Assembly (NCBI RefSeq): GCF_054482525.1
Contig: NZ_CM137006.1
Length of the DNA stretch: 64,000 nt
Direction: 5' to 3' (one strand)
Shown: positions 114-23,200 of the stretch, in pieces
Layout of the letters: every line of letters starts with the position of its first letter
How positions within the stretch are numbered: position 1 is the first letter of the stretch
Translations under genes and position numbers: made by a program
Notes under the pieces: model-generated
The model's database searches: none
Told to the model about the DNA's origin: nothing
The model's input: only the letters and a program-made list of their open reading frames with translations

Positions 114-845
114 ATGAAAAAAGTTCTGATTGCCGCGTTAATTGCAGGTTTTAGTCTTTCCGCCACAGCTGCCGAAACCATTCGTTTTGCTACCGAAGCC
201 TCCTATCCTCCGTTTGAATCGATTGATGCAAACAACCAGATCGTTGGTTTTGACGTCGACCTGGCACAGGCGCTGTGTAAAGAGATTGATGCAACCTGTA
301 CTTTCTCTAACCAGGCGTTTGACAGCCTGATCCCAAGCCTGAAATTCCGTCGCGTAGAAGCAGTGATGGCGGGCATGGATATCACTCCGGAGCGTGAAAA
401 GCAGGTGCTGTTTACCACGCCGTACTATGACAACTCTGCCCTGTTTGTGGGTCAGCAAGGCAAATACACCAGTGTTGATCAGCTGAAAGGCAAAAAAGTC
501 GGCGTTCAGAACGGGACGACACACCAGAAGTTCATTATGGATAAGCACCCGGAAATCACCACCGTTCCGTATGACAGCTACCAGAACGCAAAACTGGATC
601 TGCAAAACGGTCGTATCGACAGCGTATTCGGTGACACCGCAGTGGTCACCGAGTGGCTGAAAGACAACCCGAAACTGGCGGCAGTGGGCGATAAAGTGAC
701 CGATAAAGATTACTTCGGTACTGGCCTCGGCATCGCAGTACGCCAGGGCAACACTGAACTGCAGCAGAAACTCAACACTGCGCTGGAAAAAGTGAAGAAA
801 GATGGCACTTACGAAACCATCTACAACAAATGGTTCCAGAAGTAA
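114..845 (+). CDS. artI: Arginine-binding periplasmic protein ArtI
   Basis: 243-aa ORF with signal peptide and family-3 solute-binding fold; first gene after artP; paralog of the ORF at 2462. Confidence 0.9.
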   Translation: MKKVLIAALIAGFSLSATAAETIRFATEASYPPFESIDANNQIVGFDVDLAQALCKEIDATCTFSNQAFDSLIPSLKFRRVEAVMAGMDITPEREKQVLFTTPYYDNSALFVGQQGKYTSVDQLKGKKVGVQNGTTHQKFIMDKHPEITTVPYDSYQNAKLDLQNGRIDSVFGDTAVVTEWLKDNPKLAAVGDKVTDKDYFGTGLGIAVRQGNTELQQKLNTALEKVKKDGTYETIYNKWFQK

Positions 846-11061: not shown

Positions 11062-11784
11062 TTAGCGCGTCGCCCAACCCTGTTTGTGCAAATAATCCAG
11101 TATAAATGGGCGGCTTTCTTTAATGATTGTTCGGCGGATATGATCGCTCCAGGTATCCCGGCGATTATTGCTGCCACGTGTGAGGTAATATTCCGCCAGT
11201 TGTTCGTCATACTGCGCCAGTGCGTCTTTATCCAGCGGTTGATAGTTGTTTTCATGCACCAAAATGGAGGCCGGTAAACGCGGCTTAAGATCCGGATTAT
11301 CCGCAGGCCAGCCAAGGCACAGCCCAAACAGCGGCAGAACATGCTGCGGTAATTTCAGCAGTTCCGTCACCGCTTCAATATTATTGCGCAGGCCGCCGAT
11401 ATATACCCCGCCCAATCCCAGCGATTCCGCTGCGGTTAACGCATTCTGCGCCATCATTGCTGTATCAACGACACCGAGCAACAGTTGCTCCGCCAGGCCA
11501 AGTTGTGCATCCGGACAGATCTGTAAATGGCGGTTAAAGTCGGCACAGAACACCCAGAACTCCGCCGCTTGCGCTACGTGTTTTTGCCCGCCGGTCAGCG
11601 TCACCAGTTCATCACGTAACGCTTTGTCGGTAATGCGAATAATGCTACTGCACTGCAAAAAACTGGAACTGGACGTCGCACGGGCGCTGTTAATAATCGC
11701 CTCACGCTGCGCTTCGGAAATGGGTTCATCAGTGAAATGGCGAATGGAGCGATGGCCACAAATAAGTTCAATGGTTGGCGTCAT
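11062..11784 (-). CDS. nfsA: Oxygen-insensitive NADPH nitroreductase NfsA
   Basis: 240-aa nitroreductase-family ORF. Confidence 0.9.
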   Translation of the reverse strand: MTPTIELICGHRSIRHFTDEPISEAQREAIINSARATSSSSFLQCSSIIRITDKALRDELVTLTGGQKHVAQAAEFWVFCADFNRHLQICPDAQLGLAEQLLLGVVDTAMMAQNALTAAESLGLGGVYIGGLRNNIEAVTELLKLPQHVLPLFGLCLGWPADNPDLKPRLPASILVHENNYQPLDKDALAQYDEQLAEYYLTRGSNNRRDTWSDHIRRTIIKESRPFILDYLHKQGWATR

Positions 11785-13148: not shown

Positions 13149-14834
13149 GTGAATATAAACGTCGCCGAATTGTTAAATGGGAATTACATTCTGTTATTAT
13201 TTGTGGTCCTCGCGCTTGGGCTATGTCTCGGAAAGTTACGACTTGGTTCGATCCAACTGGGTAATTCCATTGGCGTTTTAGTCGTATCGCTGTTATTAGG
13301 CCAACAACATTTCAGCATTAACACCGACGCGCTTAATCTTGGCTTTATGCTGTTTATTTTCTGCGTCGGGGTCGAAGCCGGACCGAACTTTTTTTCCATT
13401 TTTTTTCGCGATGGGAAAAATTATCTAATGTTAGCACTGGTGATGGTTGGCAGTGCGCTGGTCATCGCCTTAGGGTTAGGTAAGCTGTTTGGCTGGGATA
13501 TTGGCCTGACGGCCGGTATGTTAGCAGGATCTATGACGTCAACACCGGTTCTGGTCGGTGCTGGCGATACACTGCGTCATTCCGGCATGGAAAGCAGGCA
13601 GCTCTCACTGGCACTGGATAATCTGAGCCTCGGGTATGCCTTAACCTATTTAATCGGTCTGGTGAGTTTGATTGTTGGTGCGCGTTACTTGCCGAAATTG
13701 CAGCATCAGGACTTACAGACCAGCGCCCAGCAAATCGCCCGCGAACGTGGCCTGGACACAGATGCCAACCGTAAGGTTTATTTGCCGGTGATCCGCGCCT
13801 ACCGCGTCGGCCCGGAGCTGGTAGCCTGGACCGACGGCAAAAATCTGCGTGAACTGGGTATTTATCGACAAACCGGCTGCTACATTGAACGTATTCGACG
13901 TAACGGGATTCTGGCAAATCCAGACGGTGATGCCGTGCTACAAATGGGCGATGAAATAGCGTTGGTAGGCTACCCCGACGCCCACGCCCGACTCGATCCC
14001 AGCTTCCGTAACGGCAAAGAAGTTTTCGATCGTGACCTTCTCGACATGCGTATCGTCACTGAAGAAGTGGTCGTTAAAAACCATAACGCTGTTGGCAAAC
14101 GCCTGGCACAACTGAAGTTGACCGATCACGGTTGCTTCCTTAACCGCGTCATTCGTAGCCAGATTGAGATGCCGATAGATGACAACGTCGTGCTTAACAA
14201 AGGTGACGTTTTACAAGTCAGCGGCGATGCCCGTCGCGTAAAAACCATCGCCGATCGCATCGGCTTTATCTCGATTCACAGCCAGGTCACTGACTTGCTG
14301 GCATTCTGCGCCTTCTTTGTTATTGGGCTGATGATCGGGATGATCACCTTCCAGTTCAGCACATTCAGTTTCGGCATGGGGAACGCTGCCGGGTTGTTAT
14401 TCGCCGGAATTATGCTGGGCTTTATGCGTGCTAACCACCCGACCTTCGGTTACATTCCGCAAGGTGCATTAAGCATGGTGAAAGAGTTCGGCTTGATGGT
14501 GTTTATGGCAGGCGTTGGTCTGAGCGCCGGTAGCGGTATTAATAACGGCCTGGGCGCGATTGGCGGTCAGATGTTGATTGCCGGATTGATTGTCAGTCTG
14601 GTGCCCGTGGTTATCTGCTTCTTGTTCGGTGCTTATGTATTGCGAATGAACCGCGCACTGTTGTTTGGCGCAATGATGGGCGCACGCACCTGCGCGCCGG
14701 CAATGGAGATCATCAGTGATACAGCTCGCAGTAACATCCCGGCGCTGGGCTATGCGGGCACCTACGCAATCGCCAACGTCCTGCTGACGCTGGCAGGGAC
14801 AATCATCGTCATGGTATGGCCAGGATTAGGATAA
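13149..14834 (+). CDS. ybjL: Putative transporter YbjL (AAE family, two TrkA-C domains)
   Basis: 561-aa ORF with GTG start; synteny. Confidence 0.85.
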
Positions 14835-14877
14835 AACTGAAGTTGCCCTGAAAATGAAATTTTTTTTTGCACAACCG

Positions 14878-14908
14878 CAGAACTTTTCCGCAGGGCATCA
14901 GTCTTAAT
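14878..14908 (+). promoter_or_regulatory. Candidate sigmaE promoter of rybB
   Basis: -35-like gaactt (14880-14885), 16-nt spacer, -10-like tctta (14902-14906), just upstream of the sRNA 5' end. Confidence 0.5.
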
Positions 14909-14912
14909 TAGT

Positions 14913-14992
14913 GCCACTGCTTTTCTTTGATGTCCCCATTTTGTGGAGCCCATCAACCCCGCCATTTTGGTTCAAGGTTGGTGGGTTTTTTG
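14913..14992 (+). ncRNA. rybB: RybB small RNA (sigmaE-dependent repressor of outer-membrane protein mRNAs)
   Basis: gccactgcttttctttgatgtccccattttgtggagcccatcaacc...ggttggtgggtttttt matches the RybB sequence as I recall it; 3' hairpin plus U tract; lies between ybjL and rcdA as in K-12. Confidence 0.85.
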
Positions 14993-15010
14993 TTGCCTGA
15001 AATTTATCTA

Positions 15011-15547
15011 CTACCCTGCAACCCTCTCAACCATCCTCAAAATCTCCTCGCGCGATAGCGGCTTACGGTCGGTGACAAAATGCAGCGTCATCCCCTCAAT
15101 AAACGCATCAAGCGCGCGTGCGGTTCCGGGTTCAAACCATTGTTCGAGCGTTTGCTGACTGCGCTGCATCCAGTTTTGCATTACCGTTTTTAATAGCGGT
15201 TTTCGGCTAGCCAGCGCGTAGAGCTGGTACATCAGCTCCATGTTATCCGGCGTTGCAACCTGTGAGCTGTATATCATATCGGTGATAGCCTGGCATGCGC
15301 CCGTAGCATCACTAACATCGCTAAAAAATGCCTGATATTGCCGGGACATGATCTCAGTAAAACTGCTGAACGCCTCCAGCAATAACTCATCAATTCCTGA
15401 AAAATAGTAGGTCATCGACCCCAACGGTACCCCGGCAAGGGTAGCAATTTTGCGGTGCGTAACAGCATGTATTCCATAAAGTTTCACCGCCTCCAGCGTG
15501 GCCTGGATAATTTTTTCTCGCCGTTGCGGATCGTTAGCGCGACGCAT
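15011..15547 (-). CDS. rcdA: TetR-family transcriptional regulator RcdA (YbjK)
   Basis: 178 aa from [21 protein letters not shown]; TetR helix-turn-helix. Confidence 0.85.
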
Positions 15548-20235: not shown

Positions 20236-20994
20236 ATGGAAACACGTCGCGAAGAGCGTATCGGGCAGCTGCTGCAAGAATTAAAACGCAGCGATAAGTT
20301 ACATCTTAAAGACGCCGCCGCCCTGCTTGGGGTTTCGGAGATGACGATTCGTCGCGATCTGAACAACCACAGTGCGCCCGTCGTTTTGCTCGGCGGCTAT
20401 ATTGTTCTGGAACCGCGCAGCGCCAGCCATTACCTGTTAAGCGATCAAAAATCCCGCCTGGTGGAAGAAAAACGCCGGGCGGCAAAACTGGCTGCGACGC
20501 TGGTAGAACCCGATCAGACCCTCTTTTTTGACTGTGGCACCACCACGCCGTGGATTATTGAAGCGATTGATAATGAAATCCCTTTCACCGCCGTTTGTTA
20601 TTCGCTAAATACCTTTCTGGCACTGAAAGAGAAACCCCATTGCCGCGCGTTTCTTTGCGGTGGTGAATTTCACGCCAGCAACGCCATTTTCAAACCCATC
20701 GATTTTCAGCAAACGCTGAATAATTTTTGCCCGGATATCGCTTTTTATTCCGCTGCGGGCGTGCATGTCAGTAAAGGCGCTACCTGCTTTAATCTTGAAG
20801 AGTTGCCGGTAAAACACTGGGCCATGTCGATGGCGCAAAAGCATGTGCTGGTTGTCGACCACAGTAAATTTGGCAAGGTGCGTCCGGCGCGCATGGGTGA
20901 CCTGAAACGCTTTGATATTGTTGTGAGCGATTGTTGCCCGGAAGATGAGTATGTGAAGTACGCGCAGACGCAGCGTATTAAGTTGATGTATTAA
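20236..20994 (+). CDS. deoR: Deoxyribose operon repressor DeoR
   Basis: 252 aa; DeoR-type N-terminal helix-turn-helix. Confidence 0.9.
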   Translation: METRREERIGQLLQELKRSDKLHLKDAAALLGVSEMTIRRDLNNHSAPVVLLGGYIVLEPRSASHYLLSDQKSRLVEEKRRAAKLAATLVEPDQTLFFDCGTTTPWIIEAIDNEIPFTAVCYSLNTFLALKEKPHCRAFLCGGEFHASNAIFKPIDFQQTLNNFCPDIAFYSAAGVHVSKGATCFNLEELPVKHWAMSMAQKHVLVVDHSKFGKVRPARMGDLKRFDIVVSDCCPEDEYVKYAQTQRIKLMY

Positions 20995-21004
20995 CAACGA
21001 ATAA

Positions 21005-21716
21005 ATATCCTCCGGCATAGCCGGAGGTTTTTCAAATGCGCCTATAAGGCTCTCTTACCAGCCGCGCCCTAACAGGCGCACACGATCTGACATTTGCATC
21101 CAACTTCGTTACTTACGGCCCGTAAACGGGCTGCCCGGATAGGGAATCGATAACTGCTCTCCCATTTTATCCTCTTCAAGCTGGTGCTTTATGTAATCCT
21201 GTATCTTCGCCGTGTTCTTACCCACCGTATCGACGTAGTACCCTCTGCACCAGAACTCCCTGTTCCTGTATTTGAATTTCAAATCACCAAACTGCTCGTA
21301 AAGCATCAGACTGCTTTTCCCTTTCAGATATCCCATAAAGCCGGATACGCTCATTTTGGGCGGGATCTCCACAAGCATATGGATATGATCTGCACAGCAT
21401 TCAGCTTCCAGAATCCGTACACTTTTCCACTCACACAGCTTTCTCAAAATACTGCCTATTGCTCTACGCTTCTCTCTGTAGAACACCTGTCTTCGGTATT
21501 TTGGCGCAAAAACTATGTGATATTTACAGTTCCATCGGGTGTGCGCTAAGCTCTTTTCGTTCCCCATTGGGACCCCCTTTTGATTTCTTGTTTGACACTT
21601 GCAGTTGCCAGACCGCAAGGTGTTTTAACAAATCAAAAGGGGTTTTAATAACTGGCTTAAAGCTGAAAGCTTTCCGGAACCCCCAGCCTAGCTGGGGGTT
21701 TTCTGTGCACAATAAC
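21005..21716 (-). mobile_element. IS200 insertion sequence (IS200/IS605 family); ends approximate
   Basis: Encodes an IS200 TnpA; upstream of tnpA lie a perfect palindrome (aacccccagcctagctgggggtt, 21678-21699) and a second stem-loop over the ribosome-binding site; fills almost the whole deoR-dacC intergenic space. Confidence 0.8.
21109..21567 (-). CDS. tnpA: IS200 transposase TnpA (HUH/Y1 single-strand transposase)
   Basis: MGNEKSLAHTRWNCKYHIVFAPKYRR...HIHMLVEIPPK... 152 aa, intact. Confidence 0.92.
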   Translation of the reverse strand: MGNEKSLAHTRWNCKYHIVFAPKYRRQVFYREKRRAIGSILRKLCEWKSVRILEAECCADHIHMLVEIPPKMSVSGFMGYLKGKSSLMLYEQFGDLKFKYRNREFWCRGYYVDTVGKNTAKIQDYIKHQLEEDKMGEQLSIPYPGSPFTGRK

Positions 21717-21741
21717 CGGATGACGTTTCGCGCCATCCGGC
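21717..21741 (-). terminator. Likely dacC terminator hairpin
   Basis: ccggatgacgtttcgcgccatccgg stem-loop just downstream of the dacC stop, abutting the IS200 end. Confidence 0.5.
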
Positions 21742-21751
21742 TATCAGAAGA

Positions 21752-22954
21752 TTAAGAGAACCAGCTGCCGAACCACTGATGGAATTTCATCATCACGAAA
21801 TCCCACATCCGACCAAAGAATCCGCCCTCTTCCACATTTTCCATCACGATTAGCGGACGCTGCTCAATGGATTTACCGTTAAGCTGGAAATCAATGGTGC
21901 CAACAACCTGACCTTTTTTCAGCGGTGCGGTAAGCTGCGGTTCCGTTAACGTGTAGCTCGCTTTCAGGTTTTTCAGCTGCCCACGCGGTATGGTCACTGA
22001 TCCCGCTTCGCCTGCCCCGAGATTCACTTCGCTCTTATCACCAAACCAGACGCGCTGAGTCACAAAGGTGGCATCAGGTTTAATTGGCGTCACGGTTTCA
22101 AAGAAGCGGAAACCCCAGGTCAATAATTTCTCAGACTCATTAAAACGGATACGGTCAGTTTTCGCACCCAGTACTACGGAGATCAAACGCATATCGCCCT
22201 GGGTAGCCGAAGCAACCAGATTATATCCCGCGCCTGCCGTGGTTCCTGTCTTCATGCCATCAACATTCAGATTGCTGCTCCACAGCAGACGGTTACGGTT
22301 AGGCTGACGAATTTTGTTGAAGGTGAACTCTTTCTCTTTATGAATGGCATACTCTTCCGGCACATCGTGGATCAATGCTTTACCCAGCAATGCCATATCG
22401 CGCGCGGTACTGAACTGCCCCGGCGCATCCAGACCGTGCACCGTCTGGAAGGTAGTGTTGGTCAGACCCAGTTTTTTGGCATAACCATTCATCAGACCAA
22501 TAAATGACTCCTGGCTCCCGGCAACGTAATCGGCCAGCGCAATACAGGCGTCATTACCGGACTGGATAATCACACCTTTGTTCAAGTCTGCCACCGAAAC
22601 CTGATCGCCCGGTTTGAGGAACATTACCGATGAACCACGCAGTGCCGGATTTCCCGTCGCCCAGGCATCTTTACCGACCGTCACCATATCGGTGAGTTTA
22701 ATCTTATCGGCCTTAAGCGCCTGCCCAACCACATAGCTGGTCATGATTTTAGTCAGGCTCGCGGGGTCCAGTTTCTCATCCGCATTGCCTTCTGCCAGCA
22801 CTTTACCGCTGGCGTAATCCATTAAAATCCATGCACGCGCATCCACGCTCGGCGCTTCAACGGTTTGTTCCGCCGCGAATGCCGTTGGGGCAAAAAGGAA
22901 TAAAAATGCAGAACCCGCTGCAAGACCACGAAGGAGAGAGGAGTATTGCGTCAT
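21752..22954 (-). CDS. dacC: D-alanyl-D-alanine carboxypeptidase DacC (PBP6)
   Basis: 400 aa from [10 protein letters not shown]; SxxK (SLTK), SGN and KTG motifs. Confidence 0.92.
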
Positions 22955-23200
22955 AAATGCCACCCGAGTATCCATTCAAAAAAAATACGTTATATCGCCG
23001 TATGATAAGTTCGGTGATTAATAACGCACACACAAACTTAAAGAAACCGTAAGTTGGTAAAGTTTTTAAAGTTTATGCAATATCCTGCCGCTTCGCTGCT
23101 TCTGGTGTCATTTTTTTGCCAGCTGTTGCTTAAAAGTTAACTTTACTTCACCATCGGAGTCCTGTTCAGCCTGTGGCTGCCTGTCGGAAAAGGGGTGAGT

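Follow-up and report, generated by a model that had tools for sequence, protein, structure and literature searches.

The rybB small RNA locus in a chromosomal stretch of Escherichia coli: a minority terminator allele at an empty attachment site of P2-like prophages

Introduction

The gene described here is already known: rybB, the sigma-E promoter from which it is transcribed and its role in the relief of envelope stress are textbook matter. Its context, with ybjL on one side and rcdA (ybjK) on the other, has been described in PMC1804206, where the published sigma-E consensus is given as GGAACTTTT for the -35 box and GTCAAA for the -10 box, and where these boxes are stated to be conserved at rybB. 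The same paper reports that promoter-gfp fusions of the Salmonella rybB are strictly rpoE-dependent, their activity being at background level in an rpoE mutant. The association of RybB with Hfq, the pairing of its 5' domain with omp mRNAs and the faster decay of these mRNAs have also been published (PMC1804206, together with references in PMC4911921). Hfq binds the U-rich 3' ends of sRNAs (PMC4911921), and the seed function of the RybB 5' end is ascribed to Papenfort 2010 and Balbontin 2010 in PMC4911921.

The rybB gene is also known as an insertion site for prophages. The “Rybb” P2 prophages have been described in E. coli strains W, B, and Crooks (PMC3032704), and the site represents the Felsduovirus defence hotspot #29 (PMC10121019). 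A paper devoted to P2-like integrases (PMC3448106) mentions neither rybB nor ybjL or ybjK.

In this work, we analysed the rybB locus in a stretch of 64,000 nucleotides from contig NZ_CM137006.1 (RefSeq assembly GCF_054482525.1), hereafter called the window. We conclude, with a probability of about 0.97, that its positions 14879-14994 are best explained jointly as the chromosomal rybB of E. coli, carrying a sigma-E promoter, encoding an omp-regulating sRNA and represented by a minority allele that is predicted to be neutral.

Results

Identity and genomic context of rybB

The features of the locus, numbered by their positions in the window, are as follows.

13149..14834, + strand: ybjL, upstream neighbour, recognised from open reading frames and matching annotations
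14860..14868, + strand: A/T-rich tract upstream of the -35 box, T9 versus T7 in K-12
14879..14887, + strand: sigma-E-type -35 box, aGAACTTTT, 8 of 9 positions as in the consensus, identical in K-12
14901..14906, + strand: sigma-E-type -10 box, GTCTTA, 4 of 6 positions as in the consensus GTCAAA, ending 6 nt ahead of the start
14913..14991, + strand: RybB sRNA, 79 nt, from the K-12 annotation (b4417) and Rfam RF00110
14913..14928, + strand: 5' target-recognition (seed) region, GCCACUGCUUUUCUUU, unpaired, the same as in K-12
14947..14987, + strand: Rho-independent terminator hairpin, 12-bp helix (14947-14958/14976-14987) and 17-nt loop
14986..14994, + strand: 3' U tract, UUUUUUGUU, termination signal
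14981..15007, + strand: empty attB of rybB-targeting P2-like (Felsduovirus) prophages, from comparison of attL and attR in 11 lysogens and one attP
15011..15547, - strand: rcdA (ybjK), convergent downstream neighbour, recognised from open reading frames and matching annotations

The original prediction had placed an RybB sRNA of about 80 nt between ybjL and rcdA and had proposed two checks, an Rfam scan and an alignment to the K-12 gene. When the window was searched in full with the Rfam 15 models at their gathering thresholds, two matches were obtained in total, RybB and STnc490. The RybB model (RF00110) matched positions 14916-14994 (+) with 104.8 bits (E = 1.7e-20) over model positions 1-79 of 79; the score lies well past the gathering score of this family, which is 40, and the RNA is therefore assigned to it. 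Alignment to K-12 MG1655 placed the annotated rybB (b4417, ncRNA, 79 nt) at 14913-14991 and revealed the same gene in the same ybjL-rcdA setting, with an identical promoter. The RNA starts with G 14913, 6 nt after TCTTA, reads GCCACTGCTTTTCTTTGATGTCCCC... and ends with the hairpin followed by TTTTTTGTT. Both checks thus uphold the prediction, and no evidence contradicting the RybB identification was found in this analysis.

The position of rybB is confirmed by the agreement of open reading frames, homologous annotations and the K-12 interval. The stop codon of ybjL, which is located on the same strand as rybB, precedes the -35 box by 45 nt and the RybB start by 78 nt. The 701-bp query surrounding rybB was matched, with 95-100% identity, in 5,422 of the 5,426 complete genomes of E. 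coli, and ybjL and rcdA were annotated in every case. In most RefSeq/PGAP strain records rybB itself is unannotated, the 82-nt matches carrying no listed features. The same is true for PCN033, the closest record found, which is identical to the window over the 701 bp at rybB and in which PGAP leaves the gene unannotated; we consider this an annotation gap and nothing more.

Other parts of the window differ from this closest record. The nfsA gene (11062-11784, - strand) is intact, with 240 codons and without an internal stop, whereas the PCN033 annotation, despite the 100% identity at the rybB region, lists it as a pseudogene interrupted by a stop codon; in strain NRZ14408 it is frameshifted. 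Since nfsA is intact in the window and broken in PCN033, the window comes from a related but different strain. An IS200/IS605-family element occupies positions 21041-21750 between deoR (20236-20994, +) and dacC (21752-22975, -), a site at which PCN033 carries no insertion. Its tnpA is located on the - strand, with the ATG at about 21566 and the stop near 21109, and its 5' region corresponds to the STnc490 match of the Rfam scan (21577-21700, - strand, 146 bits).

Promoter and seed region

The pattern gaactt-N16-tctta, noted in the original prediction ahead of the sRNA, is present at exact coordinates: GAACTT at 14880-14885, a 16-nt spacer and TCTTA at 14902-14906. In the alignment, the promoter from -43 to -1 repeats that of K-12 base for base. 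Within the window, this exact pattern was found a single time, and 100 shuffles yielded it in no case; its loosened version, GAACTT-N15-17-TCNNA, was found twice versus 1.44 expected, which is the chance level. The promoter motif alone is therefore weak, and its support comes from the identity with K-12 and from conservation. Among 114 Enterobacterales sequences anchored at +1, the conserved upstream columns at rybB are GAACTTT in the -35 region, which is the most conserved block, and AGTC..AA in the -10 region; further upstream, the A/T-rich “aaaattTTTT” columns are moderately conserved. The two blocks agree with the sigma-E consensus and with the conservation of the boxes reported in PMC1804206. 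At the sequence level, the sigmaE-like nature of the promoter is thus substantiated by its boxes, their spacing, the distance to the start and the conservation in the 114 sequences. Published data for the Salmonella promoter and for that of K-12, which is identical to the one considered here (PMC1804206), suggest that the window rybB would depend on sigma-E.

Several minor motifs were recorded as well. The second match to the loosened pattern is located at 506-533 (- strand, GAACTTCTGGTGTGTCGTCCCGTTCTGA) and belongs to a count at the chance level. The T-run at 14860-14868 represents a homopolymer length polymorphism outside the core promoter (T7 in both K-12 and NRZ14408) and has no effect on the -35/-10 spacing. 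A sigma-70-like sequence, TTGAGA-18-TAAATT, resides at 15001-15030 (- strand) within the 3' end of rcdA, antisense toward rybB; it was seen once versus a shuffle mean of 0.9 and is probably due to chance.

The beginning of the RNA is highly conserved. When one genome per species was searched for exact copies of its first 25 nt, at least 120 loci were found, which span Escherichia, Salmonella, Citrobacter, Enterobacter, Serratia, Yersinia, Proteus, Providencia, and Xenorhabdus. A 5' CCAC/GUGG pairing of positions 2-5 with 31-34, obtained by single-sequence folding, is broken in 18 of 62 sequences and is probably not real, which fits a single-stranded seed.

Terminator hairpin and its alleles

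The predicted 3' hairpin and U tract proved to be a 12-bp helix directly followed by TTTTTT and then GTT (U6GUU). The hairpin is supported by covariation in 62 distinct RNA sequences: the terminator helix shows compensatory changes at 7 of its 12 pairs with 97.2% of cells paired, and the tested structure as a whole has 95.2% paired cells, a share that drops to 20-46% upon shifting the partners by 1-3 columns, the observed covariation score being matched by none of 500 shuffles. A generic terminator scan detected nothing at rybB because it allowed loops of 3-8 nt, and the rybB loop has 17 nt with an inner mini-stem; with the loop outside the limits of the scan, we dismissed this miss as evidence against the terminator. 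By analogy with other Hfq-dependent sRNAs, the U tract may serve as the binding site for the proximal face of Hfq.

The original prediction had also pointed to a G-U wobble in the terminator stem at a pair that is a Watson-Crick one in K-12. The alignment bears this out: position 14981 is G in the window and A in K-12, so that the U14953-A pair becomes U14953·G. A further difference, T in the window versus C in K-12 at position 14968 in the hairpin loop, had been missed, and five more differences from K-12 are found within 13 nt after the U tract. The predicted folding energy of the first 82 nt is -25.0 kcal/mol for the window and -25.2 for K-12, with the outer terminator helix unchanged. Folding of the four haplotypes suggests a cost of 0.6 kcal/mol for the stem change taken alone and a gain of 0.4 kcal/mol for the loop change, through an extra A-U pair in the inner mini-stem. 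In the 62 distinct sequences, the pair 14953/14981 is represented by UA (39), AU (16), UG (3), and other combinations (4), so that U·G is present in two other taxa, in which the wobble at this pair is tolerated.

The frequency of the alleles was determined from exact matches of the 82-nt rybB among 5,420 complete E. coli records.

K-12 allele (loop C, stem A): 4,491 of 5,420 records
C/G allele (loop C, stem G): 739 of 5,420 records
Window allele (loop T, stem G): 151 of 5,420 records (2.8%)

The frequency of the window allele is now quantified: 2.8% of records have its exact sequence, and stem G in total is found in about 890 of them (about 16%). The window allele is therefore a real natural variant shared with other genomes, and a sequencing error is ruled out. 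The combination of G14981 and T14968 is predicted, on the basis of folding energies and population frequency, to be a functionally neutral minority allele. The assumption of a “minor allelic difference” has thus stood, given the predicted change of 0.2 kcal/mol and the occurrence of the allele in other E. coli genomes.

Prophage attachment site overlapping the terminator

The comparison of lysogens revealed a shared core, [G/A]TGGGTTTTTTGTT, which corresponds to positions 14981-14994 of the window and is followed by a similar stretch of 13 nt. This core was found at both attL and attR of 11 lysogens and, as a contiguous attP, in Klebsiella phage KP12. In the bacterial chromosome it is made up of the 3' side of the terminator stem of rybB and the U tract, its first base being the wobble-making G14981; in the phage, it makes up the 3' half of a hairpin that follows int. 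In the lysogens read, variants located to the right of GTT are always of the phage type at attL and of the host type at attR, which indicates that the exchange occurs within the core. Exact-match counts for the attL junctions (15 and 75 matches only) were uninformative, as prophages differ from one another within the first 20 nt of their arm.

The window itself has no prophage at this site: rcdA follows 16 nt after rybB, with no phage genes between them. In up to 1,128 of the 5,422 genomes (about 1 in 5), the match to the 701-bp query is interrupted directly behind rybB. In NRZ14408, rybB and rcdA are separated by a P2-like prophage of 34 kb that extends from ogr to the integrase gene. The putative defence cargo of the prophages read is varied and includes a TIR-domain protein, RES NAD+ phosphorylase, KAP P-loop NTPase, and DUF4041 and DUF262 proteins. 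In E. coli G3/10 and E3, internal deletions have reduced the rybB-site prophages to remnants of about 9 kb and about 13 kb, respectively, which keep both att junctions, int, the CI repressor gene, and ogr.

The state of the first core base was compared between the two sides of each prophage. The base 5' of TGGG is identical at attL (host side) and attR (phage side) in all 11 lysogens. Four of them are G/G (NRZ14408, M7424, FDAARGOS_497, and IR53017), with the phage arm ending in ...CCATTTAGATAAG; FDAARGOS_497 and IR53017 share one prophage and one host lineage, and the G/G group comes from at least three host backgrounds. The other seven are A/A (NCTC9008, ExPEC XM, ST131-4224, G3/10, 372_BP0083, E3, and BDSF8-3), with the arm ending in ...TTTACATAAA. 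In the lysogens sampled, the G variant is paired with the integrase-side arm ending in ...AGATAAG, not ...ACATAAA, and the two arm types differ at three more linked positions. With the marginals fixed, the probability of perfect concordance is 1/330 for n = 11, or 1/120 without the duplicate lineage, with kinship ignored.

Discussion

The reading of this locus as the chromosomal rybB of E. coli is based on observed family identity, synteny, promoter identity, conservation of the boxes and of the seed, and covariation in the terminator. The mode of action of the RNA may be outlined from the published work on the identical K-12 gene and the near-identical Salmonella gene, on which Hfq binding and omp targeting in the window strain would rest. 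Unfolded outer-membrane proteins would release sigma-E, and the sigma-E RNA polymerase would start at G 14913 from aGAACTTTT / N16 / TCTTA. Termination at the hairpin and the U tract would produce an RNA of about 79 nt, which, when bound by Hfq, may use its unpaired invariant 5' end, GCCACUGCUUUUCUUU, for base-pairing with many omp mRNAs. The decay of these mRNAs would be accelerated, and the porin load would decrease.

Two alternative readings concern the transcription of rybB and the function of its allele in the window. Because ybjL lies on the same strand, with its stop just 78 nt upstream of the RybB start and with no terminator-like site detected between them by the generic scan, the RNA might mainly represent a 3' product of ybjL ending at the same terminator. 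We regard this as extremely improbable, since the sigma-E promoter is kept at a fixed distance from the invariant 5' end across genera and the Salmonella promoter-gfp fusions are strictly rpoE-dependent (PMC1804206). A functional effect of the U·G allele, by which weaker termination or Hfq loading would result in less RybB or in a read-through form, is hardly more probable. The substitution G14981 does fall within the terminator stem, its predicted cost taken by itself is 0.6 kcal/mol, and GGUUGGUGGG is absent from the other 61 distinct species-level sequences. However, the minimum free energy of the full-length RNA differs by just 0.2 kcal/mol, and the outer helix is predicted to be the same; U·G is still a standard pair, which two other taxa have at the same place, and the presence of G in about 890 of the 5,420 complete E. 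coli records fits a neutral variant.

The origin of the allele deserves a separate consideration, since the differences from K-12 cluster at the 3' end of rybB, exactly over the phage attachment core. One may suppose that a P2-like prophage, since lost from rybB, has left G14981 and the downstream differences (GC, G, and T at 14995-15003) as its scar: all lysogens examined have the window sequence GCCTGAAATTTAT on the phage side of attL, and attP of phage KP12 is close to it. Junction queries and the reading of 15 loci speak against this supposition, which we consider unlikely, and left the allele without support for a phage-borne origin. At attL, A and not G is found in 7 of the 11 lysogens, and the A-version of the junction query matches 947 records versus 437 for the G-version. 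Conversely, empty sites with G were found in several host backgrounds (118UI, AR_0013, and CFSAN061771), and the downstream haplotype is frequent at unoccupied sites, with about 1,900 records being within 3 mismatches of the window 60-mer; among them, one O157:H7 record differs from it at a single position. Moreover, precise excision by the integrase, as is established for tyrosine recombinases, restores attB without a scar.

A mismatch inside the overlap of a tyrosine recombinase is expected to give, after replication, discordant attL and attR, and we apply this expectation to rybB by inference. Discordance at the first core base was seen in none of the 11 lysogens read, and the pattern suggests that host and phage alleles must match. 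In view of the small sample and with kinship ignored, we treat this matching as a lead and not as a finding. It is possible, although we hold it doubtful, that the A/G polymorphism of the terminator exceeds neutral drift and that the two rybB alleles define which attP type can lysogenise the cell. If so, the window strain would be open to the “G-type” phages and would be a poor target for the commoner “A-type”, and, if upheld, this would be a small concrete case in which the terminator of an sRNA is constrained or diversified by an attachment site for phages. At rybB, which otherwise has little weight as a discovery, the connection between this terminator allele and the phage core is the sole non-trivial lead.

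Comparison with the described systems may be summarised as follows. With RybB of K-12 (b4417), the window gene shares the ybjL-rybB-rcdA locus, the promoter from -43 to -1, the 5' 55 nt including the seed, and the terminator architecture; it differs by C>T at 14968, A>G at 14981, a T-run two bases longer upstream, and five changes past the U tract. Its promoter resembles those of the sigma-E sRNA genes rybB, micA, and micL in the -35 GAACTTTT, the -10 GTCTTA, and the 16 nt between GAACTT and TCTTA; from the K-12 rybB promoter it shows no difference, both departing from the consensus at one -35 and two -10 positions. As for the “Rybb” prophages, the window holds their target, represented by the core TGGGTTTTTTGTT and the flanking similarity over the rybB terminator and U tract, but its site is empty and has G as the first base of the core.
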